Shown: positions 12,775-62,033, counted from the stretch's first letter. The stretch is DNA of 64,000 nucleotides from Escherichia phage iGC_PHA_EC001 (OR437326.1); one strand, 5' to 3'. The notes: generated from the letters alone by a model not told the origin. Made by a program: numbers and translations.

Positions 12775-13173
12775 ATGGCTAAAGGAATTACTTTATCTAA
12801 CTCTCGCCAGGAATTCGGACACCTGGTTCTGGGTGGAGTGTTTAGCTCTGACCTTGGACACTGTGTACGTGAAGTTAACCTGGTTAAAACAGCAACCATG
12901 AAAATTGGTTCTATCCTGAAAGCTGACAACACTGAAGCTGCTAAAGCTGAAGCTGCCGATGCTGCTAAAGTTCTGATTTGGACTGATGCTCTGTTCGGTA
13001 TTGACGATGTAGCAGTAGGTGATACTTTCACCGCAGTTGTTGGCGTACGTGATCTTACTCTGAACCGCTTTGCAGTATACTACAAAGATGGCTCCCTGGT
13101 AGATGACGCTGGCGTAGCAGCACTGGAAACACATGATCTGAAACTGACCGAAAAAGTCGTTTTCACTTCTTAA
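12775..13173 (+). CDS. putative head decoration protein
   Basis: 132 aa directly upstream of the major capsid gene, as in lambda D-E arrangement; strong RBS. Confidence 0.4.
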   Translation: MAKGITLSNSRQEFGHLVLGGVFSSDLGHCVREVNLVKTATMKIGSILKADNTEAAKAEAADAAKVLIWTDALFGIDDVAVGDTFTAVVGVRDLTLNRFAVYYKDGSLVDDAGVAALETHDLKLTEKVVFTS

Positions 13174-13194: not shown

Positions 13195-14196
13195 ATGCCA
13201 GCAGTAATTTTAGATCAGGTTGTAGATTTCAGCCCTATGATCGAACTTCAGGATTCCCCTGATACACTGATTGCCAGCCTGAATCTGTTCAGTGTTGACT
13301 ATCATTCAACTACCGCTATTGAAATCGGTAAAGAAAAAGCTGAAGATGCTCTGATCTCCGCTCGTGAGCGTGGTGGTGAGCGTAACTTCCTGACCATGAA
13401 AAATACAGAACTGAAAGCGTTCCGCATTCCGTTCTTCCCTCTGGATAAAAACATCAAAGCTCAAGATATTCAATCTTTCCGTAGCTTTGCAATGGCAGGA
13501 ATCAATGACTCTCTGCGCACAGACGCTGAAGTTGTTAACCGCTATATGTCCCAGATTCTGCGTGACGTAGCAAAAACCAAAGAGAAAATCTTTGCAGAAG
13601 CAGTTATGGGTCGTGCCTATAACGGCGTAGGTGGTGCAGCTAACTCTGCATACAACTGGTATACCGAATGGGGTGCTACCCAGAAATCTGTTGCTGTAGA
13701 CTTTGCTTCTACCACTGTTTCTCCAGCAGCCACTATCGAACAAGAAGCTCGTGCTTACATCATCGATACTAAACAAGATGGCTCTACCGCTACCCGTATC
13801 GTAGCTCTGTGTTCTCGTGAGTTTTTCGCATCTCTGGTTAACTCTCCATTTGTTCGCCAGGCATATCAGTATTTCCAGGGAACTCCTAACCTTCTGCGTG
13901 ACCGCCTTAGCGGTAACATGGATGTTCAGGTGTTCGAATGGAACGGTGTAACTTACATTGAAGATATCCACGGTAACATCCCTGCTGGTGAAGCATATGT
14001 TCTGCCTATGGGTATCGAAGGTATGTTCCAGGCGCACTACGCTCCTGCGGATACTCCAGAACTGGCTAACACCCAGGCTCGTGAACTGTATACCTTCATG
14101 ATCAGCCAGCACCGCACTATTCAGCTTCAGTCTGAATTCTCGCTGCTCGCAGTTAACACCCGTCCAGAACTGGTAGTTAAACTGACTACGGCTTAA
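13195..14196 (+). CDS. major capsid protein (lambda gpE-like family)
   Basis: 333 aa, size and C-terminal motif pattern (...ANTQARELYTFMI...) reminiscent of lambda E; followed by a strong terminator. Confidence 0.65.
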   Translation: MPAVILDQVVDFSPMIELQDSPDTLIASLNLFSVDYHSTTAIEIGKEKAEDALISARERGGERNFLTMKNTELKAFRIPFFPLDKNIKAQDIQSFRSFAMAGINDSLRTDAEVVNRYMSQILRDVAKTKEKIFAEAVMGRAYNGVGGAANSAYNWYTEWGATQKSVAVDFASTTVSPAATIEQEARAYIIDTKQDGSTATRIVALCSREFFASLVNSPFVRQAYQYFQGTPNLLRDRLSGNMDVQVFEWNGVTYIEDIHGNIPAGEAYVLPMGIEGMFQAHYAPADTPELANTQARELYTFMISQHRTIQLQSEFSLLAVNTRPELVVKLTTA

Positions 14197-37616: not shown

Positions 37617-40600
37617 ATGGCAACATTCCCAACATATCCAGCAACGTCTCTCGAACAGGGCGTAGATCTGGTTATTTTCTCATCTAACCAACTCCATGAT
37701 GTTATTAATGGAAGTGCTACAGAGAGTATTGAAACAGAATCAGGGTTGATACCAACCCTGAGAAAAGCCCTTGTTGACAACTTTTTCTTTAAAAGCCCAT
37801 TAGATTGGGCGCAAGGCACAAACGAAACAGTTTTTAACCAACTTCGTTATTTCCAGAATGGAGTATTGAGCGGTTATTACTATGCTCCTAACGCTACATT
37901 GGTTAACCCAATCCCTATGCAAGGGACTCCAGTAGGAGATAACAACTGGGTATTGTGGGGACTGAAAACAGAACAATTAGCAACAGAAGTCACCCCGTGG
38001 GTATACTCTGGTGCAACTGGTTATGAAACAGTAATTAGTCCTCCTTACATCTTTGATAGTGCTATTGTTACGATCAATGGTGTTATTCAGGTTCTGGGGG
38101 AAGCTTTCCGTATAGAAGACAGTAAGATCATCTTATCTGAACCTTTGGGACACGATCCTGCAACAGGACTGCCAAACAAGCTTTTTGCTTATATTGGTAA
38201 AATCGTAGCTTCAGCAGATACAGATCCTAATCTAGAGAACCGTCTTGTTAGTTTAGAAACAAAAACGGAAGAACTAACAGAAAGCATGGATAAAGTCCCT
38301 CTGCAAACTATTGCTCGTAAGTATGGTTTGTTAGATGATGAGGTGGCTTACGCAACAGCAGGTCAATCGTTAACAGGGATTAAAGCTCTGTATGATCCGG
38401 TAGCACAGTCTTCCTACACATTACCTCCTAACATCACAGGAACTTTAACATCCTTATCTGTTTCTGGAGTAATGACTTATTCTGGAGGATCTGTAGACCT
38501 TTCTGCACTGGCTGTTGAGCGTGGACAGTTTGTTCATTTGCCTACAAGCTTTGGTAATAACGTAACTCTGACAGCTAAAAATCAGACGATTGGACGTGGT
38601 GCTGGTCGTTATCGTTGGGCTGGAAGTTTACCAAAAAGTATTTTGGCCTCTGATACATTGGAGACAAGCGGAGGATTAGGTCCAAATGCATGGGTTCTGA
38701 CTAATACAGAAGGACTGTTAACCCCTCGTGGTGGAACATACAACGATCTATTCGATGTTGTCTACTTGTCAGAATTTGCTAACAATACAACTACCTATAC
38801 CACACCAGAAGCAGCTTTCCAGGCGGCACTGTTAGCAGCAAAAGCTTCGAAAAGCAAGATTCTCGATGCTTACGGTTGCGACATGACTTTCACGACAAGC
38901 TCTTTTGATATTCAAGATATCACTTTGCGTGGTGGTGTGTTCCGTGGTCAACGCGATTATCGTGTGCAGAATGCTACAATAGAAGGCACAACTTTCCGTA
39001 ACTCTCGTGTTATGTATTGGGGTGGTGCTGTGCGCATGTTCGATTGTTTGTGGGACGGTGCTCCTCGCGCAGGTCAAGTTGGTAGCTTGGTATTCCAAGG
39101 CAACCCAATATCAGGTACTTTTGAAATTGATAACTGTACTTTTAAAAACGGGTTGTATGGCATCCTTCAACAAGGAACAGGGGAACCAGTAACACGTGGT
39201 GTCTTCCGTAACCTTACCTTCATGGACATGCAAGGTGATGCAATAGAACTGAACGTCATCAATAAACATTATGACGATGGTTGTGTGATTGAGAATATTT
39301 ACCTGTCTAATATCGATGGGACTAACGCTCCTATTCCTCTGTCCAACTGGGGTATCGGTATCGGTATAGCTGGTAAAGGACCATATGGTTACGGAATCCC
39401 TGATGATCAATATTGCAAGAATATTACAATTCGTAACGTTTTTGCAAAACGTTGTCGTCAGATTGTCCACGTAGAAGTTGGTCGTAATATCTCTATCGAA
39501 AACATTCATGGCGATCCAGACCAGACCGTATCTGTTGGGACAGGTTTGGCAACTGGCGCAGTTGTAATGTATGGAAGTAAAGATTTTACGATTGACGGTG
39601 TTTACGGAGAGCCTAAAACAGACGGTAGCACACTTGCAAGTAATATCCGTATGATTTATTTGGAGTGGGGAACTAACGCAGTTCTGGACGAAGAGGGTAA
39701 TCCGGTAGTTCCGGCACAGGGTAGACCTTCAAACCCATGCTTTAACTATTCTGTTCGTAACATTCACACCAAAACTGGGCGTGTTTTTGCGGGAGTTTCC
39801 GCTGGGCCAGGTTATGAAAACAGAGTTAGCTTTGAAAATATTCGTTGCGCTGCATTGCAGTTGTTCGGTATAGCTTCTTGGCTTTCAATGTCTAACATCA
39901 CCTGTAATATCTTCGACTGTGTTGGTCAACCTGAATCTGGTCCAGGGACATTTTATGATGGATTCTTCCGTAGAGAAAAATCTGTTCTTGAAATGGTTAA
40001 CGTAAACTGTTACCCAGATGGCAAGACGATGGTTACTGGTCGTCCACAGTGGAGCCGTTGCCGTTACTCGGATATTCATCGTGTCAACTGTAATGTTGAA
40101 GCTAATATGTATACCAATATCGCAGGTGGTATTGGAGCTATTGTAGGGACAACGGGCAAAGTTTATTACTTAGAGCCTAATCCTAGTCGAAACATTGATG
40201 GAATGCATTTCCCAACAGGGAAAGAGTTTGACAAAGGTGATATGATAGTCAAGGCGGATAATACGTTCTTCCTTGTAACAACAAGTGGGGCATATATTCC
40301 AGATATCCCAGCTTTCGGTATTCGAGCTACACAGGCAGGAGATACCTTCCTGACACAGAACTTGACTCCTAACGGGACAGCAACAAATGCTTCTTGGTTG
40401 TATCATTACCCTCTGTCAGCAGGGACACGTATCCGTATTCCTGGTGCTGGCGTAGGTGGAGCAGATTTGGACACAGTTATTACTCGTGCACCTTATCAAG
40501 ATAATGATACGTGGACTAACCCAGTTAAAATAGACATTGCAGATCCAATTGTAACGCCTACAAGTGCTGGAGTTAGAATTAAAACCATACCTAATGATTC

Positions 40601-40670
40601 CAGTAATGTTTCTGTAGGTAATACTGCGGTTATTCGCCCAACGCCAGTAGTAGATGTGCCAACAACCTAA
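37617..40670 (+). CDS. large tailspike / receptor-binding protein with probable beta-helix (1017 aa)
   Basis: Repetitive beta-strand-rich central region (N/G/T/V-rich); contains the module shared with ORF 32988; terminator follows. Confidence 0.5.
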   Translation: MATFPTYPATSLEQGVDLVIFSSNQLHDVINGSATESIETESGLIPTLRKALVDNFFFKSPLDWAQGTNETVFNQLRYFQNGVLSGYYYAPNATLVNPIPMQGTPVGDNNWVLWGLKTEQLATEVTPWVYSGATGYETVISPPYIFDSAIVTINGVIQVLGEAFRIEDSKIILSEPLGHDPATGLPNKLFAYIGKIVASADTDPNLENRLVSLETKTEELTESMDKVPLQTIARKYGLLDDEVAYATAGQSLTGIKALYDPVAQSSYTLPPNITGTLTSLSVSGVMTYSGGSVDLSALAVERGQFVHLPTSFGNNVTLTAKNQTIGRGAGRYRWAGSLPKSILASDTLETSGGLGPNAWVLTNTEGLLTPRGGTYNDLFDVVYLSEFANNTTTYTTPEAAFQAALLAAKASKSKILDAYGCDMTFTTSSFDIQDITLRGGVFRGQRDYRVQNATIEGTTFRNSRVMYWGGAVRMFDCLWDGAPRAGQVGSLVFQGNPISGTFEIDNCTFKNGLYGILQQGTGEPVTRGVFRNLTFMDMQGDAIELNVINKHYDDGCVIENIYLSNIDGTNAPIPLSNWGIGIGIAGKGPYGYGIPDDQYCKNITIRNVFAKRCRQIVHVEVGRNISIENIHGDPDQTVSVGTGLATGAVVMYGSKDFTIDGVYGEPKTDGSTLASNIRMIYLEWGTNAVLDEEGNPVVPAQGRPSNPCFNYSVRNIHTKTGRVFAGVSAGPGYENRVSFENIRCAALQLFGIASWLSMSNITCNIFDCVGQPESGPGTFYDGFFRREKSVLEMVNVNCYPDGKTMVTGRPQWSRCRYSDIHRVNCNVEANMYTNIAGGIGAIVGTTGKVYYLEPNPSRNIDGMHFPTGKEFDKGDMIVKADNTFFLVTTSGAYIPDIPAFGIRATQAGDTFLTQNLTPNGTATNASWLYHYPLSAGTRIRIPGAGVGGADLDTVITRAPYQDNDTWTNPVKIDIADPIVTPTSAGVRIKTIPNDSSNVSVGNTAVIRPTPVVDVPTT

Positions 40671-48648: not shown

Positions 48649-51600
48649 TCAATGACATGTGGCCCAAGAGTTACCCACATCATATCCGGCAGTAAGCTGA
48701 ACGTTAAGATTGTAAAATTCTCCAGCCTTAGTAACAGCTAAAGCAGCAAGTTCTCCTGCCCGACTATAAGCTGTAAACCATCCACCTTTGGGAGATTCAT
48801 GAATGTTAGCCCAAATTTGTCCCGTTTCTTTTTCCTTATTATGCTTCCATTCTTCAACTTTAGCAAGGCATTCTTTATCAATTTTCTTTTGTTCTTCGGG
48901 ATCGTCTACTTTCTTCCAACCTAATGATTCAGGTGAAAACCATTTAAATTCTACAAGGTTACGAGAAACTTCAAGCTGGGCTTCATCGTGATATGCAATC
49001 ATTTGTTGCACGAAATCTTTATTCTTCCAGTCATCTTTAAAGAAGTCAACACTTAGTCCTTCTTCTTCGATCATGTCGTCATAAATAACCATTGCACGTT
49101 TAGCACAGATAACCCCACCACTTTGGAACAGAGAGTTAAGAATCGCGTGAGCAGAACGAGTAGGAACCTTACGACCGTCAATACCCAAAACATATTGTTT
49201 ACCAGTCTTAACCCAAAAATCGTTTAAACGTTCTTTAAGACGCGCCAATGGGAATGCAGCTTCCCAGAAAGCATCAAACACCAATTGACCTGTAAACTTA
49301 TCGCTACCAATTGTTTTAGCAACCTTGTCGGCTTGTGCACCATAGGTAATACCATACTTAACAGATTTAGCAGGACTACGTTCAAATTTACGTCCAATAG
49401 TTTCAGTAATACGTTTTGCCATCATTGTGTGAACATCATTAGGTTTCTCTAACAACAGAGCGTTACAATACTCGTGTGGCTCCGGCTCGTACCGCCAACA
49501 GTTTCCTGTGATGGTAATGCAGTCTTTCTGACGCATGACCCACGTACCAAGTTCTGTTTGTGGACACCAAACATCCTCTACACCCCACTCTTCAATAGTC
49601 AAACTTTGAACAGGAATGTGAGAGCGGTTAGTCAATGTTGCCACTTTTACTTTCTGCTCTTTTGTATTGAAAGCTACAGAGATATTGCCTCCATGCACCA
49701 GGTACGAGGCAGTTAAAGCTGCTTCAAAAAGTTCACCTGGGTTCTGCGCCCAACGCCAAACAGGTTTTTGTTTATGTTCGTGCCAGTAACCATCTGCAAT
49801 CAAGAAACCTTCCAAGAAAGCTACACGCTCGGCATGAGACATATTAACTACACGTTCTACCCACGGAACATCCCATTTACCTTGTTGAACAGAAGTTAAA
49901 CTATTTACCTGATCTTGTTCCATGTTAAATGGAGCATTACAAATAATGTTATCTCCTGTGCAAAGCTCGGCAGTTGTTCTGACTTTAGGCACATAAGTAT
50001 TCCCTTTACTACGGGTATTAACATACCAACGGTGATCTGCTGTTGCACGGTAAGTGTGTGATTTCCCTTTAATCTCAAACGTCTTACTATTTTTATAGAA
50101 GACCTTACCTTTTACTTTAGTCCATTCTTTCAGACCTGTTTCAGCATTGTACCCTAAAATCTCATCCCCTTCCTTCAGGTCGTGATATCCTACCCAACCT
50201 TTACGAGTCAAAGCTTGAGCATCCATCGGCACACAGTAGTGTGATTCAATTTTTGCTTCCAAAGAGTCGAAGTCGTAGCCGATCTGGAAGTATTTAGGAA
50301 CCTCTACACCAAACAAGTTACGCATCTCCCACCCAAACAAAGATGTGACACGAGGAATATTAGCTACAGATCTATGCTTCATACGAGAGGTTGCAGCATC
50401 ACATGTAGCGGCTGGGGTAGGAATACGCCCATCCGCCCTTACTGCGGCTAAGAAACCTTTATCGTATTCTTGATCTTCTTCATCTTCTTCCCAATCAGCA
50501 CCGCCACCTAAAATAGAGTTCCTACGATGCTTATACGTTAAGTATTCTACAATCTGTGTAGCATAAGGAAACTTCTCACTCAAAGCTTGCAGGTTAGGAC
50601 AAATTTCTTTTTCCTGACCTTTGGTAAAACACGGGTTAGTCAATACTTTAAGACCGCGACCTTTACCTTTTGCTATACGCTCTTGAATCTTCCTTTCCAG
50701 GGTTTCCGGTGTGCACTCCAGATGATCACAACGATCCTGACAAAAATTAGAAGATAGAGTTTGCTCAACGTAAGCTCGGATACCTTTCTGAAGTTCTTCC
50801 TCGCTCTTTTTAATCTTGGTGCCAGATTTAAGAGTCAAGTCTTTATCTTTATATTCAGACGGTACCCAACCTAATCCTACAAGCCAGTTTTTAATATGGG
50901 TTGTATCGTTTAATGTTGCAGGAATGTTAGGATCACATAGAGGTTCATCTGCTGCAACTGGCAGTTTCCACTCTTTCCCCAACATAACTAACCACCAATC
51001 GCCATCCCTCTCTTCCAAATGACCATCATGTTTCTTAGCAAAATTGATCATATGGTTAGTTGGCTCTAAGTTCTTTTTAATTTGCAACTTAGGTGGAATA
51101 AAAGCCTTAAGATAACCTTTTGTTGCTGGTTTAGGTGGCAAAATAGGCTCAACGAGTAAACGAAGACGCTCCATTTCTGCATCCAAAAAAGCAAGGTTCT
51201 CTTCTGCTTGTTTCATGTTAAAAGCAAACCCACGGTGTTCCTGGCGTGTAATAATGTCTGCTACACGTTGTTCAAGTTCAAATGGACCTTCCCATTTATC
51301 ATAATCACCCCATTCTTCCATAAGGTAATTATATACACTTGTATTGGCTTTGTTGTCATAGATACAGTAATAAAGCATATCCGCAGCAAAAGTCTTAAAT
51401 CGATCTTCTTCTGGAATCTCTTTACGGAAATCTATTTTTACATCACCACCTGCTTTTCGAGAAAGTGCTGCCAAACTATGTCCTGATTTGCCCTCAATCT
51501 TTCGATCTGGGTTTAACACTTTACTCAAAATCAAGGAGTCAATAAGTTTTACCTTATTTTTGCCCCACGTATTATATTTAACACTGTAATCTAATCCATA

Positions 51601-51981
51601 AAACAGTTTTGTAGCCAACCAGTCGTAGTTGATACCGTTGTGAGCCACAGCCATTTCAACCAGATATTCAGGCTTGTCTTTAAAATAACCTTCATGATTA
51701 ATAAAATCTGGGAAATCTTTTAGTTGAAAATGTGTGTAATCTTGCGCCACATACTCTTTAAGAACATATGTGTATTTACCATCTGACTCTTCATAAGGAC
51801 GCCCATCAAAGATGTATTTAGGGCCATCGTGGAAAGCTACTATTTCTCCTGTTTCATGGTTCTCTAAGACAATACAGTGCATTTGAAATGTGTCTTTGAG
51901 ACGATAAGGACTAGCTAAATAATCAATAGTGTCATTATTCAACAATCCGTTTGCTTCAATATCCCATGTAAACTTACTCAC
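48649..51981 (-). CDS. family A (T7-like) DNA polymerase with 3'-5' exonuclease domain, precursor containing an intein
   Basis: N-terminal DIEANGL (Exo I); motif A DFDSLEAKI; after the insert KSVKYGITYGAQADKVAKTIG (motif B region); C-terminal GIDGRKVPTRSAHAILNSLFQSGG and ...GNSWATCH match T7 gene 5 polymerase pattern; GTG start. Confidence 0.85.
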   Translation of the reverse strand: MSKFTWDIEANGLLNNDTIDYLASPYRLKDTFQMHCIVLENHETGEIVAFHDGPKYIFDGRPYEESDGKYTYVLKEYVAQDYTHFQLKDFPDFINHEGYFKDKPEYLVEMAVAHNGINYDWLATKLFYGLDYSVKYNTWGKNKVKLIDSLILSKVLNPDRKIEGKSGHSLAALSRKAGGDVKIDFRKEIPEEDRFKTFAADMLYYCIYDNKANTSVYNYLMEEWGDYDKWEGPFELEQRVADIITRQEHRGFAFNMKQAEENLAFLDAEMERLRLLVEPILPPKPATKGYLKAFIPPKLQIKKNLEPTNHMINFAKKHDGHLEERDGDWWLVMLGKEWKLPVAADEPLCDPNIPATLNDTTHIKNWLVGLGWVPSEYKDKDLTLKSGTKIKKSEEELQKGIRAYVEQTLSSNFCQDRCDHLECTPETLERKIQERIAKGKGRGLKVLTNPCFTKGQEKEICPNLQALSEKFPYATQIVEYLTYKHRRNSILGGGADWEEDEEDQEYDKGFLAAVRADGRIPTPAATCDAATSRMKHRSVANIPRVTSLFGWEMRNLFGVEVPKYFQIGYDFDSLEAKIESHYCVPMDAQALTRKGWVGYHDLKEGDEILGYNAETGLKEWTKVKGKVFYKNSKTFEIKGKSHTYRATADHRWYVNTRSKGNTYVPKVRTTAELCTGDNIICNAPFNMEQDQVNSLTSVQQGKWDVPWVERVVNMSHAERVAFLEGFLIADGYWHEHKQKPVWRWAQNPGELFEAALTASYLVHGGNISVAFNTKEQKVKVATLTNRSHIPVQSLTIEEWGVEDVWCPQTELGTWVMRQKDCITITGNCWRYEPEPHEYCNALLLEKPNDVHTMMAKRITETIGRKFERSPAKSVKYGITYGAQADKVAKTIGSDKFTGQLVFDAFWEAAFPLARLKERLNDFWVKTGKQYVLGIDGRKVPTRSAHAILNSLFQSGGVICAKRAMVIYDDMIEEEGLSVDFFKDDWKNKDFVQQMIAYHDEAQLEVSRNLVEFKWFSPESLGWKKVDDPEEQKKIDKECLAKVEEWKHNKEKETGQIWANIHESPKGGWFTAYSRAGELAALAVTKAGEFYNLNVQLTAGYDVGNSWATCH
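49501..50235 (-). mobile_element. intein (245 aa) after polymerase motif A, with LAGLIDADG-like motif
   Basis: Begins Cys (CVPMDAQALT), block-B-like TADH, LAGLIDADG-like LEGFLIADGY, ends ...ITITGN followed by Cys +1; excision brings motif A next to the conserved downstream palm sequence. Confidence 0.65.
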
Positions 51982-52775
51982 TATTCCTCCTTTCTAATGT
52001 TCTCCAGAACCCACTGAAGTTCTTTTAAACTTAAACTTCTTACTCCCGCAGTTTTACTAGCTTCAGCTTTAAGTAACGGGTAAGCCTCAATGATACGCGT
52101 TTTAAGATCAGAAGTCAAGGCTTTTAAAAAGTAGGTAGATGCTTCAGATAAAGAATCTTCTTCTGATAACACTTTACCTGCACTTGCTCCCGCTCTCCTA
52201 ACGGCTATATCGTAGTCTTTACTGTTACCTAATACGAACAGTTGATTCTCTCCTAAAACAACGGGAGAACGCTTCTCGTTGCGTTTAATCCATATCTGGA
52301 ATACACAAGGAACATCCCAAGGTTCTCCATGAAGAATAAAAGATCCTTTTGGACATTCTTCTTCGTAAAGAAGATGCATGTGGGGATTTAGTTTGTGTGC
52401 AAAAAAGATTTTTTGAAATGTGCGAGGCAAGATAAAACAAATACCACCTTCGTTATCCAACATTTCAGCACAATGGTTAAAGAACTTAATGGCAAGACTA
52501 GCATTTTTTCCAAACGGAGGATTACCGACAAAAGCAGTTACACTACCAACAGACTCAACAGATTGAGCTAAAAAATCTGCCTCAATACAATCTTCAAACT
52601 TAGGGTCAATATCAAAAGAAGTTATGTTTTTAAAACAAGAAGAGAAAGCCCCTTCTCCCGCAGATGGTTCTACGTAGTTAGCTTCCTCTCCAAAAATTTC
52701 TTTGATCTTATCACATAAGAACCCCGCATAAGCGGGGTTAGTGTAATATTGATCAAGTGTGTTCAACTTGCTCAA
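51981..52775 (-). CDS. N6-adenine DNA methyltransferase (gamma-class-like)
   Basis: SAM-binding EPSAGEGAF followed by catalytic GNPPFG (NPPF); stop overlaps polymerase start codon. Confidence 0.6.
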   Translation of the reverse strand: MSKLNTLDQYYTNPAYAGFLCDKIKEIFGEEANYVEPSAGEGAFSSCFKNITSFDIDPKFEDCIEADFLAQSVESVGSVTAFVGNPPFGKNASLAIKFFNHCAEMLDNEGGICFILPRTFQKIFFAHKLNPHMHLLYEEECPKGSFILHGEPWDVPCVFQIWIKRNEKRSPVVLGENQLFVLGNSKDYDIAVRRAGASAGKVLSEEDSLSEASTYFLKALTSDLKTRIIEAYPLLKAEASKTAGVRSLSLKELQWVLENIRKEE

Positions 52776-53308: not shown

Positions 53309-55087
53309 TTAATAGTTGCTATCCGTAGGCAAATTAGCAGGATTGTTGAAATACTGCTCTTTGTCATGCAGAGTTGCAGTTCTAATGTCATAGTAAAACT
53401 GCCCTGCCGGACCAGTTTCCGAGAACTCACGGTTTTTTAGGATAAAGCAATGAGTCGTATTGCGTTCTACAGGGTCTTCAGCGGCTTTATCTCGTTCCAA
53501 AGCTAAGGTAATACCAGCACCTTTAGCCAAGAAACTACTACCCATTGCATCGTCCTCTGTTAAGTGTTCATTGCCACCATTAGCCGATTTCTTAACGTGC
53601 GAGATGACGATAATAGTTATAGCATACTCTTTCATGATGCGCTTCAACCATGTTGCTAACTCTTCCTGGGCTTGAACATCCATACCAGAAAGCAAATCAG
53701 AATAAGGGTCGATAACAAGAATTGTTACTCCAAAATAGATGATCATCTCCAAAACTTTTTCTTTGATAGACTCCACATCTGCTCCACGATCATCACACAC
53801 ATAAAAACGTGGTGATCCATCTTCTCTTTCGTAAAAATCTAGGATTTTTTCTTTATTCTCTTCCAAGATTTGAAATTTCTCTTCCGGTGTTTTCCTGTGT
53901 AGAGGAATATGCAGGAACGAGGACAACAGGTTACGAGAATATTTCTTATAAGTTGCTTCCAAGGACAGAATACCTAGGGTATGTTCTGGGTGCGCAACAA
54001 TAATATGTTTGGTGATCTCGTTCACCATCAAAGTTTTACCGATACTGGTCTTTGCCAGGATGACTGTAATCTCTTCCTCTACTAAACCACCACCCAGCAT
54101 ATTTGCAGCAACACGCATAAAAGGAGGCAAGGTAATCATCTTGGATTCCAAGCATTCTAATGCAGCTTCATACAAGACATTAGAAGCATAAACACCTGCT
54201 GGGGTGTATAGACGAGCACTCCAAAAAGCTTTTACGAAATCTTTTGCACGACCTTCTTCCAGATACTGATTGGCATCCTTAAGATCCATCTGCATACGGT
54301 AGACTTTGTTACGAGGTAGCACCTTAACAATATTTTCAAATGCCTCATTACCTGCTTTGTCATTATCCATGCAAACAATAATCTTCTTAAATTTTTCAAA
54401 GAAAGGATATTGTGCCTGAACTTGTTTATACATACTGGTTTCACCAGTTGTGCCACTAACTACTGCTGGAAGTTCATATTTGTTGTCCAAGTTTTCAGAC
54501 AGCATTTGATAAGCTGCCAGAGCATCGTGTTCACCACCTGTAATTACCACAGTATGAGAACGGTCTGCAAAACGAATTTGTCCAAAAAGATCTACATCTT
54601 TACCTACTTGACCAATAGGTTTACTGAAATCTTTAGGATGAATACGACGCTTAAAACCAACCAATTCTTTACCGATGGTAGTTGGATATAAACAACTTTC
54701 TACTACCATCTGATCCCCTTCCTGACGGTATTCATAACGCACACCATAGAAAGATGAAACTTTTTCTTTAATGCCTCGATAACCACGTGGGTTGGTTGAT
54801 GTTTCTTGAACAATTTTACGATGAATCTGTTTATTAAATTCCGAACCCACAATCTCCTCCTCTTCTTCTAAAACTTCACCATTTTCTCGTAACCATTCTA
54901 CGCTAGGAATAGTGTATTCACACGCAAAGCACTTAGCACCTTTATGCTCTCCATTAGAATCTAATCCATAAACCATCAGGTTATTACGAGAGCGATCCTT
55001 GCCATTTTTCATGCAGCGCGGACAACCTGTATGCCCTTCCTTGCTAAGATCAACATCAAATCCATATTTAGTTATAATGTGCGACAC
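53309..55087 (-). CDS. primase-helicase (T7 gp4-like: zinc-binding domain, TOPRIM primase, DnaB-family helicase)
   Basis: N-terminal CPRC...CFAC zinc motif; TOPRIM acidic motifs (VVITGGEHDA; CMDNDKAGNEA); Walker A AKTSIGKT and Walker B VLVIDPYSD; GTG start with AGGAGA upstream. Confidence 0.8.
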   Translation of the reverse strand: MSHIITKYGFDVDLSKEGHTGCPRCMKNGKDRSRNNLMVYGLDSNGEHKGAKCFACEYTIPSVEWLRENGEVLEEEEEIVGSEFNKQIHRKIVQETSTNPRGYRGIKEKVSSFYGVRYEYRQEGDQMVVESCLYPTTIGKELVGFKRRIHPKDFSKPIGQVGKDVDLFGQIRFADRSHTVVITGGEHDALAAYQMLSENLDNKYELPAVVSGTTGETSMYKQVQAQYPFFEKFKKIIVCMDNDKAGNEAFENIVKVLPRNKVYRMQMDLKDANQYLEEGRAKDFVKAFWSARLYTPAGVYASNVLYEAALECLESKMITLPPFMRVAANMLGGGLVEEEITVILAKTSIGKTLMVNEITKHIIVAHPEHTLGILSLEATYKKYSRNLLSSFLHIPLHRKTPEEKFQILEENKEKILDFYEREDGSPRFYVCDDRGADVESIKEKVLEMIIYFGVTILVIDPYSDLLSGMDVQAQEELATWLKRIMKEYAITIIVISHVKKSANGGNEHLTEDDAMGSSFLAKGAGITLALERDKAAEDPVERNTTHCFILKNREFSETGPAGQFYYDIRTATLHDKEQYFNNPANLPTDSNY

Positions 55088-55099
55088 TTTGTTCTCCTG

Positions 55100-55378
55100 T
55101 TAAAATGGTTCGTTAGTCTCCATCATATATTCTGCTTCTAGTTCTTCCATATGCTTTCTAAATTGGAAAGCAATTTCTGCTACAGTTACATTTAAATCTT
55201 TTTCAAAAACTTCTGTAGAGCCTTCATAAAAACGAATACCGTCAATTAAAAGCCCTCCGTGGTAATCCCAATCACTTTCACGAGAAAGCGGGTTAGGCTC
55301 TTCATAATAGTAATCCACCTCCACAACTAAGGCTTTCCCGTTACGAGTGGTGTATTCAAAATCAAAAGTGTTAATCAT
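55100..55378 (-). CDS. hypothetical acidic protein (92 aa)
   Basis: ORF track; ATGA-type overlap with upstream gene. Confidence 0.4.
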   Translation of the reverse strand: MINTFDFEYTTRNGKALVVEVDYYYEEPNPLSRESDWDYHGGLLIDGIRFYEGSTEVFEKDLNVTVAEIAFQFRKHMEELEAEYMMETNEPF

Positions 55379-56322
55379 TATAGCTCCTCAAATAAAAGTC
55401 TACGACGCTCATTCAACACATCAATGTGATAATGAGTCCTGACATACTTAGCTAATGCTAATCCTTTCTCCATGCAAACATCGGGAGCACTTAATAAGTA
55501 TTCCGTAATATCTTTCCACTCGGAAGGTGTTTCAGCAAAGAATAACAAATCTTTAAACTCTTGTGGATGATAATTCTCACGAGGAGAACAGATCAAAGGT
55601 AAACCCTTAGCACCTGCCTCAAGAATTTTAAGATTGCTTTTTGCATTATTAAACACGTTATCAATCAATGGCGCAAGACTGATTTGATGACCATCGTAAG
55701 ATTCCATGTAGTTGGCATATGGTCTTACACCTTCATAAACACAAGTTGGTGCTACATTTTCTCTGATCACAGACCATTCACGACTACTTAAAACTTCAGA
55801 ATCCCTACGAAAACCACATATTGTAAGATCTTTACCAAAATCGGGCAAGATAGCCAAATCTTGTTTATGTGTTTCACTTCCAGCCCAGACTAATGGAGTT
55901 TTGGAGTAGCGATCACGGGTCAACACAAATTGACCTTCATCGTAAGGAAGTCCATTAGGGATTATGTGCACATTATCATTGTATTGTGAAAGTTCAACTT
56001 GCAAAGCAGGTGTCGTAGTTGTAACAAGATCGCTGTGCTCTAAAAACCATTTTAAATGTTCACGAATACCTGATTCAAAAATACCTTCTAGCATGTGTCC
56101 TTTTGGAATAACTAAAGAGTCATCCAAATCCATAACCATTTTAAAACCTAGGTTTTTAAGGGCTAAAAAGCCCTCTTTACCTTTTGTTGGCACCCCGTTA
56201 AAAACGAAAACGTTGTGTTTAGGTTGTGAAGAGAACTGCCTTGAGTAAGGCAGCACTACCCTATGGAAATCGCAGACACTATAATTGATTCCGTTACGAT
56301 TGTCAAGAATTATTTGTCCCAT
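55378..56322 (-). CDS. glycosyltransferase-like protein (GT-B-like), paralogue of 56330..57277
   Basis: C-terminal NAKSNLKILEAGAKGLPLICS resembles the GT-B nucleotide-sugar-binding motif; clear paralogy with the next gene. Confidence 0.45.
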   Translation of the reverse strand: MGQIILDNRNGINYSVCDFHRVVLPYSRQFSSQPKHNVFVFNGVPTKGKEGFLALKNLGFKMVMDLDDSLVIPKGHMLEGIFESGIREHLKWFLEHSDLVTTTTPALQVELSQYNDNVHIIPNGLPYDEGQFVLTRDRYSKTPLVWAGSETHKQDLAILPDFGKDLTICGFRRDSEVLSSREWSVIRENVAPTCVYEGVRPYANYMESYDGHQISLAPLIDNVFNNAKSNLKILEAGAKGLPLICSPRENYHPQEFKDLLFFAETPSEWKDITEYLLSAPDVCMEKGLALAKYVRTHYHIDVLNERRRLLFEEL

Positions 56323-56329
56323 ACTTCAC

Positions 56330-57277
56330 CTACAAACTTTCAATAACCTGGCGTCGCAACTCGTTTGCATCTGCCAGATTATAATGTGTTCGAACATGTT
56401 CAGCCAAGAACAAGCCACGATCTTCCCGATAGTTTGGATTGCGAAGAAGCTTAACAATTTCGTAATGCCATTCTGCTTTATTCTCTGCGTAAGCAACAGC
56501 GCGAGCATCTACAGGGTTAAAATAAGGTAATACCTTAGAACAAACAATTGGAATACCTTTTGCTCCAGCTTCCAGGATTTTGAGATTACTTTTACAATTA
56601 TTAAAATCGTTATCTACCAAAGGAGCTATAGCAATAGCATGACTTTCGTAAACACTCATGTAATTATCTAAATCTTTTACAGCGGCTTTATATTTGGCAT
56701 TTGGTAAATTTCTGCGAATCTTAATCCACTCTTGTCCCGTGATGCTTTGTGATGCTTCATATCCCGCAATAGTAAGAAGTTCATCATCGAAAGTATTAGA
56801 GACTAATCGTAAATCTGGTTCGTGACTAGCACCGCCAGCCCATACAACAGGGGTACCGGATGAACGATCATTTGACAAAGTGAATTGTCCGCTATCAAAA
56901 GGAAGTGCATTTCGGATCACAACGACATTTCTATTTAAGTGACGGATCTTATATGCCAAATATTCTGTAGTCACAATAACCACATCAGCAAGCTTAACCA
57001 TAGCTACAATAGCATGAGTGTTTGACTCGTATAGACTTGCTAAATAATGCTCTGGATTAAGTTGGTAAAAATCATCTAAATCTACAACAACCTTAACACC
57101 TTGACGTTTCAAAGATAAAACGTATTCTGCACCTTTAGAGTGGATACGGTTAAACACAACAATATCTTTCTTAGGTTGAAAATTATTGTTGTTAAATGGC
57201 ATAACAATACGATGATAGTCACAACCGCTATGAGGTTTTGCATCAATTTTTAGTTTAGACCATTTTTTATTTGACAT
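56330..57277 (-). CDS. glycosyltransferase-like protein (GT-B-like), paralogue of 55378..56322
   Basis: Shares blocks VWAGG..H..DL, NCKSNLKILEAGAKGIPIVCS, HVRTHYN with the neighbour; start trimmed to ATG 57277 which has AGGAGG 9 nt upstream. Confidence 0.45.
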   Translation of the reverse strand: MSNKKWSKLKIDAKPHSGCDYHRIVMPFNNNNFQPKKDIVVFNRIHSKGAEYVLSLKRQGVKVVVDLDDFYQLNPEHYLASLYESNTHAIVAMVKLADVVIVTTEYLAYKIRHLNRNVVVIRNALPFDSGQFTLSNDRSSGTPVVWAGGASHEPDLRLVSNTFDDELLTIAGYEASQSITGQEWIKIRRNLPNAKYKAAVKDLDNYMSVYESHAIAIAPLVDNDFNNCKSNLKILEAGAKGIPIVCSKVLPYFNPVDARAVAYAENKAEWHYEIVKLLRNPNYREDRGLFLAEHVRTHYNLADANELRRQVIESL

Positions 57278-57950
57278 GTGCCAGTGCCTCCTCATAGGAA
57301 ATTCGGATTTTCCCATTTTTAATATCCTCTAAAGATGCTTTATATTCTTCCCAGTTAATCCCGATAGCAGCTTCTTTCTCTTCTTTTGTCAGATTAGCAA
57401 AAGGCATAGGGTTGTTTCCAAAAACATCGTCTGGGTGGATATAAGCCATGATACGAAGTGGACAAGGTGTTGCCTGAATACCATGATTCAAACCAGCAGC
57501 TTGCAAACGGTGTCCCCATTCAGCATCTTCAAAACCATAGCCGTGAGTGTAAGGACGGAAATAACCCATCTTCTCAACAACGGCACGAGAATACATTGCA
57601 AATTGACACATTGCAAGTTCCCAGAGAATAACTTCTCCTTTGCTTCCAACAACTTTATCTTTGAAATACTCCGGCATACCAAAGAAATCCCATCCTCCAG
57701 AGACAGCTTGATCTACAAAGTATGTTTCCCATCCCTCCATGACTGGGTAGCAATCGTCGTCAAAAATAAACCAATAATCATAACCTTCTTCATAAAACTG
57801 GTGCATAAGTTCATTCCTGGCATAAGCTACACCTTTACGATCTGGATCGTTGAATACTCGAAAATCTGCACGTGGATCTGTTACAAGGTAGTCTTTAAGT
57901 GGACGGACACCTACAGTGATAACACCCACTCCAATTTTAATATTTTCCAT
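57267..57950 (-). CDS. glycosyltransferase-like protein (GT-A fold, DxD type)
   Basis: DxD-type motif in YDYWFIFDDDCYP and downstream YGFEDAEWGHRL typical of GT-A enzymes. Confidence 0.45.
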   Translation of the reverse strand: MENIKIGVGVITVGVRPLKDYLVTDPRADFRVFNDPDRKGVAYARNELMHQFYEEGYDYWFIFDDDCYPVMEGWETYFVDQAVSGGWDFFGMPEYFKDKVVGSKGEVILWELAMCQFAMYSRAVVEKMGYFRPYTHGYGFEDAEWGHRLQAAGLNHGIQATPCPLRIMAYIHPDDVFGNNPMPFANLTKEEKEAAIGINWEEYKASLEDIKNGKIRISYEEALAHVK

Positions 57951-57958
57951 TTTCTCTC

Positions 57959-58522
57959 CTAAATAGTTTTACTGTGATCATGACAGTGTAATAAATGATG
58001 TATAGACCGTTGAGGATTTGTTTGACCTAATCTGTAAATGTGAAACAGATACATTCCCCGCATCAATCCTAACCTCTTTCCTTTTTCATGTAAAGTGCGA
58101 GAGAAAATTAAGTCGAATTGGATAGATTTTTCTTCGAAAGGAATTTCATTCCACAATGATTTTCTAAAAAGCAAGAAGAAACCTGCCAGAGGTGTTCCGA
58201 AAGGAACTTCTTCAACACTCACTTTATGATATTCTCTTGCAATCTTAGCATATTCTATATGGTTTAGAATATCTGGATCATCATTAATTTGGTTAGAGAA
58301 AAGCTGATAACCACTGCCTAACCTGTTACAAGTTGCACCTATTACATCAAAAGGCGGGTTTGACATAACAAGCTCTTCAAGCATAGATGGTTGATCAGGT
58401 AGGAGGAACATTGTATCGGTATCTCTTAAACACACCCAACTATCATCTGGAAGAACGGCAATGGCTTCATTGATAGCCTTGCCGATATTTCCTGTCAGAT
58501 AGGGAGTAATATAATAAATCAT
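57959..58522 (-). CDS. possible glycosyltransferase-like protein (187 aa)
   Basis: DxD-like CLRDTDTMF; weaker than neighbours. Confidence 0.3.
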   Translation of the reverse strand: MIYYITPYLTGNIGKAINEAIAVLPDDSWVCLRDTDTMFLLPDQPSMLEELVMSNPPFDVIGATCNRLGSGYQLFSNQINDDPDILNHIEYAKIAREYHKVSVEEVPFGTPLAGFFLLFRKSLWNEIPFEEKSIQFDLIFSRTLHEKGKRLGLMRGMYLFHIYRLGQTNPQRSIHHLLHCHDHSKTI

Positions 58523-58539
58523 TCTCCCCCTCCGTTATA

Positions 58540-58731
58540 TTAACTGTCAGCTACAATCCCACGTTTAATCATTTCTTGTTGAATCTGGATCACACGATCT
58601 CGTGCTTCCATATATTCTTTAAAAGATTCTTGGAGATGGTCACGGGCTACGTCCCGTAGTTTAATCAGTTTGTCGTTTGTCACTTCTTGAAGAGAGATCT
58701 CGCCAGTTTCATTGGTCCCAAGCGTTTTCAT
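58540..58731 (-). CDS. hypothetical protein (63 aa)
   Basis: ORF track. Confidence 0.35.
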   Translation of the reverse strand: MKTLGTNETGEISLQEVTNDKLIKLRDVARDHLQESFKEYMEARDRVIQIQQEMIKRGIVADS

Positions 58732-59845: not shown

Positions 59846-60448
59846 TTATGGACATTCATACCATTCTTTTTTACCACCGAAGGCCATCACCACATCACAA
59901 ATATCCAGACCAGCTTTACCTACACCATATGCTTTCAGCTTCCATTCCCCATCTTCACGAACCAAGGAAGCCACGTGGCAGATTGTGTTGCCAGCTACTT
60001 CAGGAGCCAGGAAGTCAAAATCCAGAATTTCCACATTGCGCTCGGAGTCGAAGATTTTAAGCATACCTTCAGAAGCATGACCAAAACGTTTCAGACCTGT
60101 ATCATCATCAATGGTCAGAACAAAGGCAATCTCTTGTGCATCAGGAGAGATTTTAGCCAGAGTAATATCAATCTGCTCCATGCTGCCAGTTCCATCACGA
60201 ACATCGTCACCAGCGAAGGTAGAACGTTCAGGATCAAACTTGTTAGCATAGCAAACCAGATGACGTGCAGACAGCATTTCAGGATTACCAGCGGCATTGT
60301 GACGACAAACCAGTGCACTTACATCCAGATCCAGTTTAGAATCAGATTTCCAAGAGAATTCCAGGCGCAGTTCTTTCAGAGCCGGAGCAACTTTCTTCAG
60401 GGAAATTTTTTCGCTAGAGCCTTTTTTCAGGGAAATTTTATCAGTCAT
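59846..60448 (-). CDS. TerD-family protein
   Basis: Tandem ISLKKG...ISLKK N-terminal repeats, DLDVSALV, GDDVRDGTG acidic metal-binding-like loop, IAFVLTI, EDGEWKLKAYGVG all parallel E. coli TerD. Confidence 0.7.
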   Translation of the reverse strand: MTDKISLKKGSSEKISLKKVAPALKELRLEFSWKSDSKLDLDVSALVCRHNAAGNPEMLSARHLVCYANKFDPERSTFAGDDVRDGTGSMEQIDITLAKISPDAQEIAFVLTIDDDTGLKRFGHASEGMLKIFDSERNVEILDFDFLAPEVAGNTICHVASLVREDGEWKLKAYGVGKAGLDICDVVMAFGGKKEWYECP

Positions 60449-60463
60449 CTTTTGTCTCCTCTA

Positions 60464-60733
60464 TTATTTAAGTGTAATACCAGTTACAGTCAATTCTACT
60501 TCCAAAAGCTTAGATGTGTTTTGGATTGATACTAATTGTGCATGATGGTTTAGTTCTACAGCAGAATAATCATTTTCCCCATCATCTACTTTTAAATAAA
60601 CAATGATTTCACTAAGGTCTAAACCATTTTCGTCAAATGCATTTTCATAGACGAAAGTATCTCCTACATCCAAATCTTTAATGGTAAGGCATCGTTTATT
60701 TACTTTTTGCTCATCAATTTCGAAGTTTAACAC
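60464..60733 (-). CDS. hypothetical small protein, paralogue of 61755..62033
   Basis: Shares DLDVGDTFVYENAFDENGLD ... EVELTVTGITLK blocks with the other copy. Confidence 0.4.
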   Translation of the reverse strand: MLNFEIDEQKVNKRCLTIKDLDVGDTFVYENAFDENGLDLSEIIVYLKVDDGENDYSAVELNHHAQLVSIQNTSKLLEVELTVTGITLK

Positions 60734-60962
60734 TTCTTCCTCCTAATGTTATCTCCGGTTTGTATATACGAAGAATTATAGCATTTTCATTTTCTTTGTC
60801 AACCCATTCTTCATAATCGGGCCATACATGAATCTCTACTCTACTTACAATATCTTCCATTCGCACAGTCCCAATGAAATACTCTTTGAGACTGCGCATA
60901 ATGAAAGCTTCTCTCTCGCGCCAATAATTTTCTATGACTTGAGAGGCAAGCTCGTCGATCAT
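60714..60962 (-). CDS. hypothetical protein (82 aa)
   Basis: ORF track. Confidence 0.35.
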   Translation of the reverse strand: MIDELASQVIENYWREREAFIMRSLKEYFIGTVRMEDIVSRVEIHVWPDYEEWVDKENENAIILRIYKPEITLGGRSVKLRN

Positions 60963-61753
60963 TTTTTAGCACCCACTTTAACAACCCACTCTCCGAACTC
61001 TTCAGATAAGAGTTTGTCATAAAGCTCTGAATCTGTCAAGTCTAAATCTTTAATGCCAATAAAACCAACATTATCATAAGCATTTGCCAGTTCTTTCAGG
61101 AAGCCAAACTTCTCATTACCAACGCCAACCATGAACCAATAAATAGGTTTATTCTTATTCTCTTCGATAAGACGACGAACAGCACTAGGATCACCATTCT
61201 CACCATCCGTCTGGAAGAATACAACACTAGGGGTAACGTCAGCACCTGGTTCAGATACAGCTACAACTTTTTCACGCTCTACAGACACTGTTTCAGTTTT
61301 ACCAAGCAGACGATTAAAGAAGCCTTTCTTTGGAGCCTCCTCTTGTACCACTTGTTTAGTGGTAATATATTTAGTAACAGTGCCAAAATACTCATCGTAG
61401 ATATCCGCCATTACAGGGGCGTAATTTGTTCCACCTCCGATACGAACATTACGCATACATTTACCAACATAGTCATCGTAAACATCTGCTGTTGCTGGAG
61501 TAAGCTCTTGGGAACTCGTATTGAAGGCCCACATATCAATTTGTTGATTATCGTCGAACAGCATACCAAAAGGAAGCAGTTTACCTACAAAATCACTCAC
61601 TACCCCACTAGAATATAGACCATGCATACTACCAGAAATATCTAGAGCACATGCTACACGAAGAACAATCTTACCTTCATTCAGGTTCTTATTCTTTTTC
61701 AGAGAGAAAGCAAGGTTTTCTTGACGTTTTTTCAGGCTGATTTTCTCGGACAT
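60959..61753 (-). CDS. von Willebrand factor A domain protein (TerY-like) with TerD-type N-terminal repeat
   Basis: MIDAS motif in ACALDISGSMHG (DxSxS); N-terminus MSEKISLKK echoes the TerD N-terminus. Confidence 0.55.
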   Translation of the reverse strand: MSEKISLKKRQENLAFSLKKNKNLNEGKIVLRVACALDISGSMHGLYSSGVVSDFVGKLLPFGMLFDDNQQIDMWAFNTSSQELTPATADVYDDYVGKCMRNVRIGGGTNYAPVMADIYDEYFGTVTKYITTKQVVQEEAPKKGFFNRLLGKTETVSVEREKVVAVSEPGADVTPSVVFFQTDGENGDPSAVRRLIEENKNKPIYWFMVGVGNEKFGFLKELANAYDNVGFIGIKDLDLTDSELYDKLLSEEFGEWVVKVGAKK

Positions 61754-61754
61754 A

Positions 61755-62033
61755 TTATTTCTCCTTTTTAAGTGTAATATTGGTAACTTCTAAATCTACT
61801 TCCACCATATTTGTATCTGGTGGGATGCAATGAGTATAGCCTCGTTGTGCTAGTGATCCATTAATACAAATCGCACTGTTTGTGGAATTTTTAATGAACA
61901 CCAAGTTACGGTAGGTATCCAACCCTGCGTCTTCATAGGCATCATAATACATGAATGTTGCCCCTACGTCAAGATCTTCGAAAGCAATAGGTAAATCTTG
62001 ACTTTTTTCTTCTTGAATATTGAATCTAAACAC
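61755..62033 (-). CDS. hypothetical small protein, paralogue of 60464..60733 (GTG start)
   Basis: GTG at 62033 with GAGGAGG 5 nt upstream aligns with the start of the paralogue; track start 62099 overlaps upstream gene by 74 nt. Confidence 0.4.
   Translation of the reverse strand: MFRFNIQEEKSQDLPIAFEDLDVGATFMYYDAYEDAGLDTYRNLVFIKNSTNSAICINGSLAQRGYTHCIPPDTNMVEVDLEVTNITLKKEK

Follow-up and report, generated by a model that had tools for sequence, protein, structure and literature searches.

Mycobacteriophages carry glycans at the C-termini of capsid and tail-tube subunits, according to the summary of Freeman 2023 given in PMC12619734. Phage DNA can also be glycosylated; the characterised pathways need a hydroxylated base, provided by a ThyA-family enzyme or by TET/5mYOX acting on 5-methylcytosine (5mC) or thymine, and their genes are usually clustered (PMC13326640; Pyle et al. 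2023 preprint). Here, we analyse a cassette of four consecutive glycosyltransferase (GT) genes, called A to D, in a 64,000-nucleotide stretch of DNA (the window) from Escherichia phage iGC_PHA_EC001 (OR437326.1). Positions 55000-58600 are 99.5% identical to Escherichia phages Mt1B1_P17, ESCO37 and REC, and 98-99% identical to phAPEC8 and about 60 further records; the group is Phapecoctavirus (Stephanstirmvirinae), phAPEC8-like lytic coliphages of ~150 kb. The cassette is kept across all Stephanstirmvirinae. An earlier note on this DNA had suggested a sugar pathway not described for this gene set, but the cluster is already annotated: the 2012 record of phage phi92 assigns gp163-gp166 a TreT fold, a GT-B fold, a ppGalNAc-T2 fold and a GT fold, and RefSeq names all four genes glycosyltransferase. 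An action on DNA is likewise already published, as the rhamnosylation of hydroxymethylated nucleotides proposed by Olsen et al. in 2020 (PMC7552041), and is largely contradicted. The paper completing the BASEL collection leaves the Stephanstirmvirinae GTs unmentioned; a D ortholog is present in the BASEL phi92-like phage PaulScherrer.

Our main finding is a link of the D, C and GT-B families with head genes and with capsid proteins whose last residue is Ser or Thr. From these sequence comparisons, we give a probability of roughly 0.5 to the reading that the cassette carries out stepwise O-glycosylation of C-terminal Ser/Thr residues of virion proteins. Virion proteins had been named in the earlier note as an alternative target, and this is the reading that the comparative evidence favours. 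The four genes are as follows.

57959..58522, minus strand: gene D, 187 amino acids (aa), minimal GT-A glycosyltransferase with a D34-x-D36 motif; the cassette's first gene and most widely kept member
57267..57950, minus strand: gene C, 227 aa, GT2-like GT-A glycosyltransferase with invariant DDD (64-66) and ED (141-142)
56330..57277, minus strand: gene B, 315 aa, GT4-like GT-B glycosyltransferase, paralog of A
55378..56322, minus strand: gene A, 314 aa, GT4-like GT-B glycosyltransferase

That all four proteins are glycosyltransferase-like, A and B as GT-B paralogs and C and D as GT-A proteins with a DxD motif, is well supported. The earlier note had proposed exactly these open reading frames (ORFs) and folds; the ORFs lie on the minus strand at the coordinates it gave, and profile searches together with structure models bear out the folds, the basis for A and B being sequence profiles. 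A and B share 41% identity (E=4e-77), and C and D show no sequence relationship. Every one of the four matches PHROGs named glycosyltransferase (E<1e-78), with A and B matching phrog_7162 at E=9.5e-145 and E=5.5e-149. In Pfam, A scores 25.1 bits against PF13524 (Glyco_trans_1_2; cutoff 25), B scores below the cutoffs for Glyco_trans_1_4 (PF13692, 22.8 bits) and Glyco_trans_1_2 (PF13524, 20.8 bits), and D has no match; NCBIfam gave no match for any of the four. A profile of the GT-B family (27 members) searched against the PDB recovered the retaining GT4 enzymes TreT (7e-4), PglA, BshA and PimB, and C and D both show the GT-A fold with an Asp-x-Asp motif. The profile searches that the earlier note had called for, here made against Pfam, PHROGs and the PDB, uphold the glycosyltransferase identity. 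None of the four contains a transmembrane segment (maximum 19-aa hydropathy, 0.8-1.65).

Two narrower assignments of C were rejected. Its match to TAGT (PF20691) reaches 19.5 bits against a cutoff of 27.5, with 37 residues aligned, and its match to the PHROG for beta-glucosyl-HMC alpha-glucosyltransferase is below threshold and limited to the DxD region. A larger C-type GT of 454-485 aa occurs in small-phage lineages (L027:10531-11916, L097:2771-4228, L036:5689-7080, L070:8557-9987); these proteins have a conserved extra C-terminal domain of ~240 aa that the C of this phage lacks. The D family has no Pfam model and comprises ~980 clusters at 50% identity.

To place the cassette among other phages, we scanned IMG/VR with a profile of D. 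The 80 loci returned, with loci found before, make 82 D-bearing viral loci, whose D proteins fall into 16 clusters at 60% identity; two of these are of the Stephanstirmvirinae type. Terminase (TerL), portal, protease and major capsid protein (MCP) genes were labelled using iterative hidden Markov models (HMMs) and PHROG checks. Outside the Stephanstirmvirinae type, the GT genes lie within the structural module in 13 of 14 clusters. The usual sites are between portal and protease or MCP, just before TerS/TerL, and just after the MCP. One arrangement, TerL-portal-methyltransferase (MTase)-x-(TOD1-like GT + D fusion)-protease-MCP, is found at 36 loci and also in phi18:1 (gp40-gp41), a cultured Cellulophaga phage with an MCP that ends in ..VSGT. 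Islands of 5-12 genes lie between portal and scaffold or MCP at loci L046, L049, L059, L087 and L088; the GT genes stand directly after the MCP at L036, L070 and L090, and directly precede TerS/TerL at L027 and L007. The islands also encode GT2 enzymes, FkbM and Methyltransf_24 methyltransferases, TOD1/MUCI70-like GTs, a polysaccharide deacetylase and a Stealth domain, a content that, judged by domain family, is a toolkit for building and tailoring glycans.

The composition of the cassette itself varies. The D-C-B-A set occurs in Phapecoctavirus, phi92 and locus L010. Klebsiella phage KP13-26 has D with a single GT-B that is 61% identical to B, and B is the copy kept in Klebsiella relatives having only one GT-B. 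At locus L009, D is accompanied by an NAD-dependent sugar epimerase/dehydratase, C and a GT-B, and a 45-kb P22-like phage (L008) has a GT-B and C between TerL and portal. A prophage of Serratia sp. M24T3 carries D (41% identity), C (36%) and a GT-B (39%) in the same order, between lysis genes and HNH/terminase. Such modularity fits a glycan variable in length and composition.

Every MCP that we identified in a GT-bearing lineage ends in Thr or Ser, usually in Thr-Thr. The Thr-Thr tails are ..GVPTT, ..ANPTT, ..QQTT, ..GGTT, ..GATT, ..TRTT and ..EETT; the others are ..GPVT, ..TQGT, ..TLAS, ..VSGT, ..DDLT, ..VTNS and ..GAGS. An alignment of 10 MCP sequences was too divergent for a locus search, so three separate control sets were assembled. 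The first contains 80 loci selected for an MCP 82-100% identical to the L027 protein, counted if at least 9 kb of upstream sequence was available. All 20 MCPs with ..G(A/S)GS or ..PTT tails are accompanied by a C-type GT, encoded three genes upstream of TerL, against none of the 31 loci with tails such as ..APAAGGGA, ..AGGQ or ..PAGA; the exception is a single ..PAAS locus without a GT. Packaging and head gene order is otherwise unchanged between the GT-bearing and GT-lacking loci. In the second set, 78 relatives of a second MCP type (28-94% identity), D and/or C are present at three of four Ser/Thr-ending MCPs and at 0 of 74 others (Fisher p=5e-5), and one of the GT-bearing MCPs represents a new lineage with the tail ..TQGT. 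In the third, 78 relatives of a third MCP type (38-100% identity), GTs accompany all three Ser/Thr-ending MCPs (tail ..GATT) and none of the 75 others. When the three sets are pooled, the MCP ends in Ser or Thr at only 2 of 182 GT-lacking loci. The pattern is correlative, and on this comparison of sequences it recurs across unrelated MCP lineages.

Three proteins of this phage are candidates for the acceptor.

12775..13173, plus strand: head decoration protein, leading candidate acceptor; phrog_2680 'head decoration'; tail ...EKVVFTS, with Ser last
13195..14196, plus strand: MCP, second candidate acceptor; lambda gpE-like; phrog_29 'major head protein', E=3.9e-54; tail ...VVKLTTA
37617..40670, plus strand: 1017-aa tail fibre/spike, third and speculative candidate acceptor; labelled 'colanic acid degradation' in Mt1B1_P17; tail ...VDVPTT

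Examination of these tails points to the decoration protein as the likeliest acceptor. Its FTS tail is kept in Justusliebigvirus UAB_1 and Klebsiella phi1_175008, and is absent from three GT-lacking relatives (FV3, ..QTLGE; Aeromonas 2L372X, ..DKVVG; Hena1, ..VTPV); tblastn alignments of the protein extend to its last residue (132) only within Stephanstirmvirinae. Among 34 ORFs of the structural region, just two end in Ser or Thr, the decoration protein and the 1017-aa tail spike. The LTTA tail of the MCP is kept in GT-bearing Stephanstirmvirinae, including UAB_1 and phi1_175008, and the corresponding tails in the GT-lacking relatives are ..KNGG (FV3), ..KMTSV (2L372X) and ..TGTFA (Hena1). The MCP is the weaker candidate because its last residue is Ala. 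In its ..VDVPTT end, the spike is similar to capsid proteins ending in ..GVPTT and ..ANPTT from phages with D and C homologs.

We infer the following scheme for this phage, covering the acceptor, the sugars, the order in which the enzymes act and the biological role. The four cytosolic GTs would build a short glycan on virion proteins, of up to ~4 sugars with one added per enzyme, most likely at the C-terminal tail of the decoration protein (...FTS) and possibly also on the MCP (...LTTA) and the tail spike (...VPTT). Either D or C could place the first sugar on the hydroxyl of the terminal Ser or Thr, a role we propose for these two because D is near-universal and C is the sole member in one lineage, where it has the extra ~240-aa domain; the remaining GT-A enzyme and the two GT-B enzymes would then extend the chain. 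At least one sugar is probably L-rhamnose. RmlC and RmlD are encoded elsewhere in the genome and would supply dTDP-L-rhamnose from dTDP-4-keto-6-deoxyglucose, which all Enterobacterales make for enterobacterial common antigen (ECA); RmlA and RmlB are also encoded by some members of the genus. By analogy with mycobacteriophages, the glycan may shield the virion surface from antibodies or other binders.

Several observations weigh against this scheme. Among ~132 records matching the MCP at 80% identity or more, and 141 records with D (a few outside the subfamily), we found no GT-lacking member of Stephanstirmvirinae that could serve as an internal control. The MCP here is gpE-like rather than HK97-like and ends in Ala, leaving the Ser/Thr rule to carry over through the decoration protein alone, and the contrast in decoration-protein tails comes from just three GT-lacking comparators. 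The covariation in the first control set reflects few independent evolutionary events, and 'GT-lacking' there means without HMM-detected D, C and GT-B families, so that other GT types could occur. We found no report of a glycan on any of these virions in the literature covered, which did not include the phi92 structural paper. The location is also awkward. In Stephanstirmvirinae, the cassette adjoins the primase/helicase and is apparently co-transcribed with replication genes, not head genes; in some small phages (L049, L059, L088, L041) the island lies on the strand opposite to the flanking head genes, as a moron would; and a site in the head module would equally suit enzymes acting on DNA just before packaging.

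Of the competing explanations, the one that survives best, while still unlikely, is that these soluble GTs remodel the host envelope by altering intermediates of the lipopolysaccharide (LPS) core, ECA or O-antigen at the cytoplasmic face. The phage could thereby hide the receptors it uses itself, ECA and the first outer-core glucose, and so exclude superinfection, or stop progeny from sticking to debris, and in temperate relatives the effect could be serotype conversion. This would fit the reported dependence of these phages on ECA and core glucose (PMC8594841), and the PHROGs category 'moron, auxiliary metabolic gene and host takeover' to which all four families are assigned. Expression in the early or middle phase, together with replication genes, would suit a role in modifying the host; RmlC and RmlD would presumably draw on the ECA pool of dTDP-4-keto-6-deoxyglucose; and the opposite-strand islands of small phages, like the lysis-terminase site in the Serratia prophage, are moron-type positions. 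However, the cassette contains no membrane proteins, Gtr-like components or transmembrane segments, and in the largest groups the GT genes are co-oriented inside late head operons, whose expression comes too late for the surface to be remodelled. The way in which the C-terminal residue of the capsid protein tracks GT presence is also left unexplained.

We consider it quite unlikely that the acceptor is something else altogether, that is, a non-virion protein of phage or host, a small molecule or a lipid, with the outcome being, for example, inactivation of a host factor or a glycosylated metabolite. GT4-like enzymes often use small molecules or lipids (as the TreT, BshA and PimB matches illustrate), and a Ter-type cluster (TerD, TelA, vWA, TerC, ComF-like phosphoribosyltransferase (PRTase), HAD) lies nearby. 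Yet in most lineages the cassette travels without Ter genes, no specific candidate acceptor was found, and the association with head modules and capsid tails is again unexplained.

Hypermodification of DNA, with a hydroxylated base receiving rhamnose or other sugars from the GTs in the manner of glucosyl-hydroxymethylcytosine (glucosyl-hmC) in T4 or arabinosyl-5-hydroxycytosine (arabinosyl-5hoC) in RB69, was the reading favoured in the earlier note; we regard it as highly unlikely. Its attraction lies in the genomic setting: the cassette stands beside primase/helicase, PolA and SSB, the dTDP-rhamnose genes lie in a nucleotide-metabolism module with NrdAB, a ThyX-like gene and an NT5C nucleotidase, and the genome encodes a MazG-like nucleoside triphosphate (NTP) pyrophosphohydrolase. 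The known pathways, however, require a ThyA-family hydroxylase or hydroxymethylase or a TET/JBP enzyme, and neither these nor a deazaguanine gene was found. None is present in the annotation of the complete, near-identical Mt1B1_P17 genome, and no Thymidylat_synt, Tet_JBP or deazaguanine-pathway domain appeared in a Pfam scan of ~105 further ORFs of at least 100 aa from the non-structural part of the window and the rest of the Mt1B1_P17 genome (ORFs below 100 aa, annotated structural genes and the large replication genes were omitted). The earlier note had seen no hydroxymethylase in the window and had advised looking further afield; what it saw holds for the rest of the Mt1B1_P17 genome as well.

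The DNA arabinosyltransferases of RB69 and DLP3, which are experimentally supported, are also GT4-like GT-B enzymes (PMC13326640), so the fold does not decide the acceptor. C has the general R...DDD...ED pattern of DNA-acting GT-A enzymes and matches weakly to TAGT and to the beta-glucosyl-HMC alpha-glucosyltransferase PHROG, although the TAGT match is below its cutoff and covers 37 residues only. The a-gt and b-gt families are absent among the Pfam and PHROG matches of A and B, as are T4 BGT and AGT chains among the PDB profile matches at E<=10, and three of the four proteins are acidic by isoelectric point, a weak argument that adds minor support. The same GT families also occur in 35-55 kb phages and a prophage, with no base-hydroxylating gene in the parts examined. 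In Cellulophaga phage phi18:1, no TET-like gene was found near the C5-MTases (gp08 is an AAA ATPase and gp09 has no match).

Published experiments on close relatives point the same way. In one study, HincII digested DNA from every Phapecoctavirus and Justusliebigvirus isolate, ESCO37 included, and the only resistant DNAs were those of three T-even isolates (PMC10269720). Maffei et al. 2021 describe the cassette-bearing phi92-like phages as 'exceptionally susceptible' to restriction-modification (RM) despite a 'putative dTDP glycosylation machinery' (PMC8594841), and these phages are sensitive to Druantia as well. Because of the gene absences, the HincII cutting and the RM sensitivity combined, T4-like global DNA modification is very unlikely. 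A variant in which the GTs would act on DNA sparsely, or on a new kind of acceptor, possibly a base hydroxylated by the ThyX-like flavoenzyme, at sites too rare or too sequence-specific to affect HincII or the RM systems tested, seems to us extremely improbable.

The ThyX-like protein is a previously unannotated thymidylate synthase homolog of 332 aa encoded outside the window (L003:42548-43546, equivalent to Mt1B1_P17 111047-112045). It matches PF02511 (33 bits) and phrog_85 'thymidylate synthase', is longer than typical ThyX, and has the motif THR-x7-S where the canonical one is RHR-x7-S, the first Arg being replaced by Thr. Its gene adjoins those for an NT5C-like deoxynucleotidase, NrdAB, RmlC and RmlD, and is the sole gene of thymidylate-synthase type that we found; from its sequence, we take the product to be an ordinary dTMP synthase. 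The only hint of nucleotide modification at any GT-bearing locus is an Nmad5 protein (L008:16754-17359, minus strand) within the structural region of the 45-kb P22-like phage, ~6 kb from its GT-B and C homologs. In the window, orthologs of the gene at 11158-11637 (plus strand) are labelled 'DNA methyltransferase' in Mt1B1_P17 and others, and Pfam identifies an XkdF-like serine protease (Peptidase_S78_2, E=1.4e-11); the label is probably a propagated misannotation of a prohead protease. Acb2/Tad1 hairpin, NADAR, Macro, SIR2, RdgC and resolvase domains occur among 'hypothetical' proteins elsewhere in the genome (Pfam; L002, L004), and anti-defence or NAD/ADP-ribose-related functions are possible for them.

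The cassette is tightly packed, with 7-8 nt gaps, an 11-nt overlap of C and B, and a stop codon of A that overlaps the start of the next gene. A longer alternative ORF for B extends to 57316; we chose the start at 57277 because a GAGGAGG ribosome-binding site lies upstream of this ATG, and RefSeq uses the same start. A terminator scan found no terminator-like site between the four genes on the coding strand. Given the tight packing and overlaps and the lack of an internal terminator, the four GT genes are probably transcribed as a single unit together with the 92-aa gene downstream of them and the primase; promoter-like sites around the cassette are ~2 standard deviations above shuffled sequence, yet scattered. 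The leftward block that contains the cassette comprises SSB, PolA, an NPPF-motif methyltransferase-like gene, the primase-helicase, the four GT genes, an endolysin and the Ter-type cluster. The primase-helicase, DNA polymerase and SSB named as neighbours in the earlier note were all located, as listed below.

53309-55087: primase-helicase
51981-52775, minus strand: NPPF-motif methyltransferase-like gene
48649-51981, minus strand: PolA
45508-46395: SSB

The adenine methyltransferase reported alongside them is a less certain case: the neighbouring position is as described and the NPPF motif is present, but the protein has no Pfam match at E<=0.01. Its match to phrog_799 (DNA methyltransferase, E=1e-10) is limited to the N-terminal 120 residues, and its full-length match is phrog_5172, a family of unknown function.

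PolA contains a 245-aa insertion (residues 583-827; window 49501-50235, minus strand) that is missing from Mt1B1_P17, where the flanks are 99% identical. The insertion begins with Cys and ends with Asn followed by Cys, and a LAGLIDADG-like 'FLEGFLIADGYW' stretch lies inside it; by these features, it looks like an intein with a homing endonuclease. The PolA of phi92 is about the same length as the one here and Mt1B1_P17 lacks the insertion, which suggests that its presence varies within the subfamily. Downstream of the GT genes, the Ter-type cluster (TerD, vWA-TerF-like, TelA, TerC, ComF-like PRTase and HAD hydrolase) occupies window positions 59846-64000 and continues beyond (L001 25000-35500). 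It is kept in relatives (locus L010). Near-identical or close copies of the GT cluster are found in records named Campylobacter phage A110a, B15 and C3, Acinetobacter phage vB_AbaM_ABPW7 and Pseudomonas phage PsgM04F. These Campylobacter, Acinetobacter and Pseudomonas records may have a mis-assigned host or derive from lysates contaminated with a coliphage.

The main interest of these results is the general rule relating a GT family to Ser/Thr-ending capsid proteins, not these four genes themselves. For many uncultured phages, the link between the D family and such capsids offers a simple way of predicting virion glycosylation from sequence. The analysis also corrects a plausible but probably wrong habit of annotation, in which GTs beside replication genes are assigned to DNA modification. 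Phapecoctavirus and phi92-like phages are common broad-host-range coliphages that are used or considered for therapy, and such phages have been found in a commercial cocktail. If they do make glycans on their heads, there would be consequences for recognition by antibodies, for clearance and for stability, as has been reported for mycobacteriophages.

Comparison with known systems places the cassette as follows. Gtr-type O-antigen modification (GtrA/GtrB/GtrC) uses a membrane-embedded flippase, a bactoprenol glucosyltransferase and a GT specific to the serotype, and no Gtr families are among the Pfam and PHROG matches of A-D. The capsid glycosylation of chlorovirus PBCV-1 (A64R GT domain, PDB 2p6w) is similar at the level of fold only, in a eukaryotic virus with N-linked glycans. 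The TET/5mYOX-associated GTs (Pfam TAGT) share with C a GT-A fold and the R...DDD...ED pattern, with a weak local match; they differ in that C falls below the TAGT cutoff and no TET/JBP gene was found here. Pyle et al. (2023 preprint) note that a base-modification enzyme is missing from the neighbourhood in ~65% of the contigs that carry related GTs, making those GTs less likely to act on DNA.

The T4 alpha- and beta-glucosyltransferases and the RB69 and DLP3 arabinosyltransferases resemble the cassette in having several sequential GTs near nucleotide or replication genes in large lytic myoviruses, and the RB69 and DLP3 enzymes are GT4-like GT-B proteins, as are A and B. In contrast to the phage studied here, where no such hydroxylase was found, these systems require a ThyA-family hydroxymethylase or hydroxylase, a dCTPase and a dNMP kinase, and their DNA is refractory to restriction, whereas that of the near-identical phages is restrictable. 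The closest relatives are phi92 gp163-gp166, direct orthologs (A, 76% identity; D, 66%) in the same order and at the same site beside the primase/helicase; there is no material difference, and the genes here are another copy of that known cluster.

The nearest functional parallel remains mycobacteriophage virion glycosylation. The present case differs from it in its hosts (Gram-negative bacteria and marine Bacteroidota, not actinobacteria), in a cassette that adjoins replication genes, in a decoration protein as the best candidate acceptor, and in being known from sequence alone. In the account given in PMC12619734, the mycobacteriophage system uses phage-encoded GTs, sometimes with methyltransferases, and shielding of virions from antibodies has been proposed; the likeness to the phages analysed here is that the presence of the D and C glycosyltransferases tracks a C-terminal Ser/Thr capsid tail.

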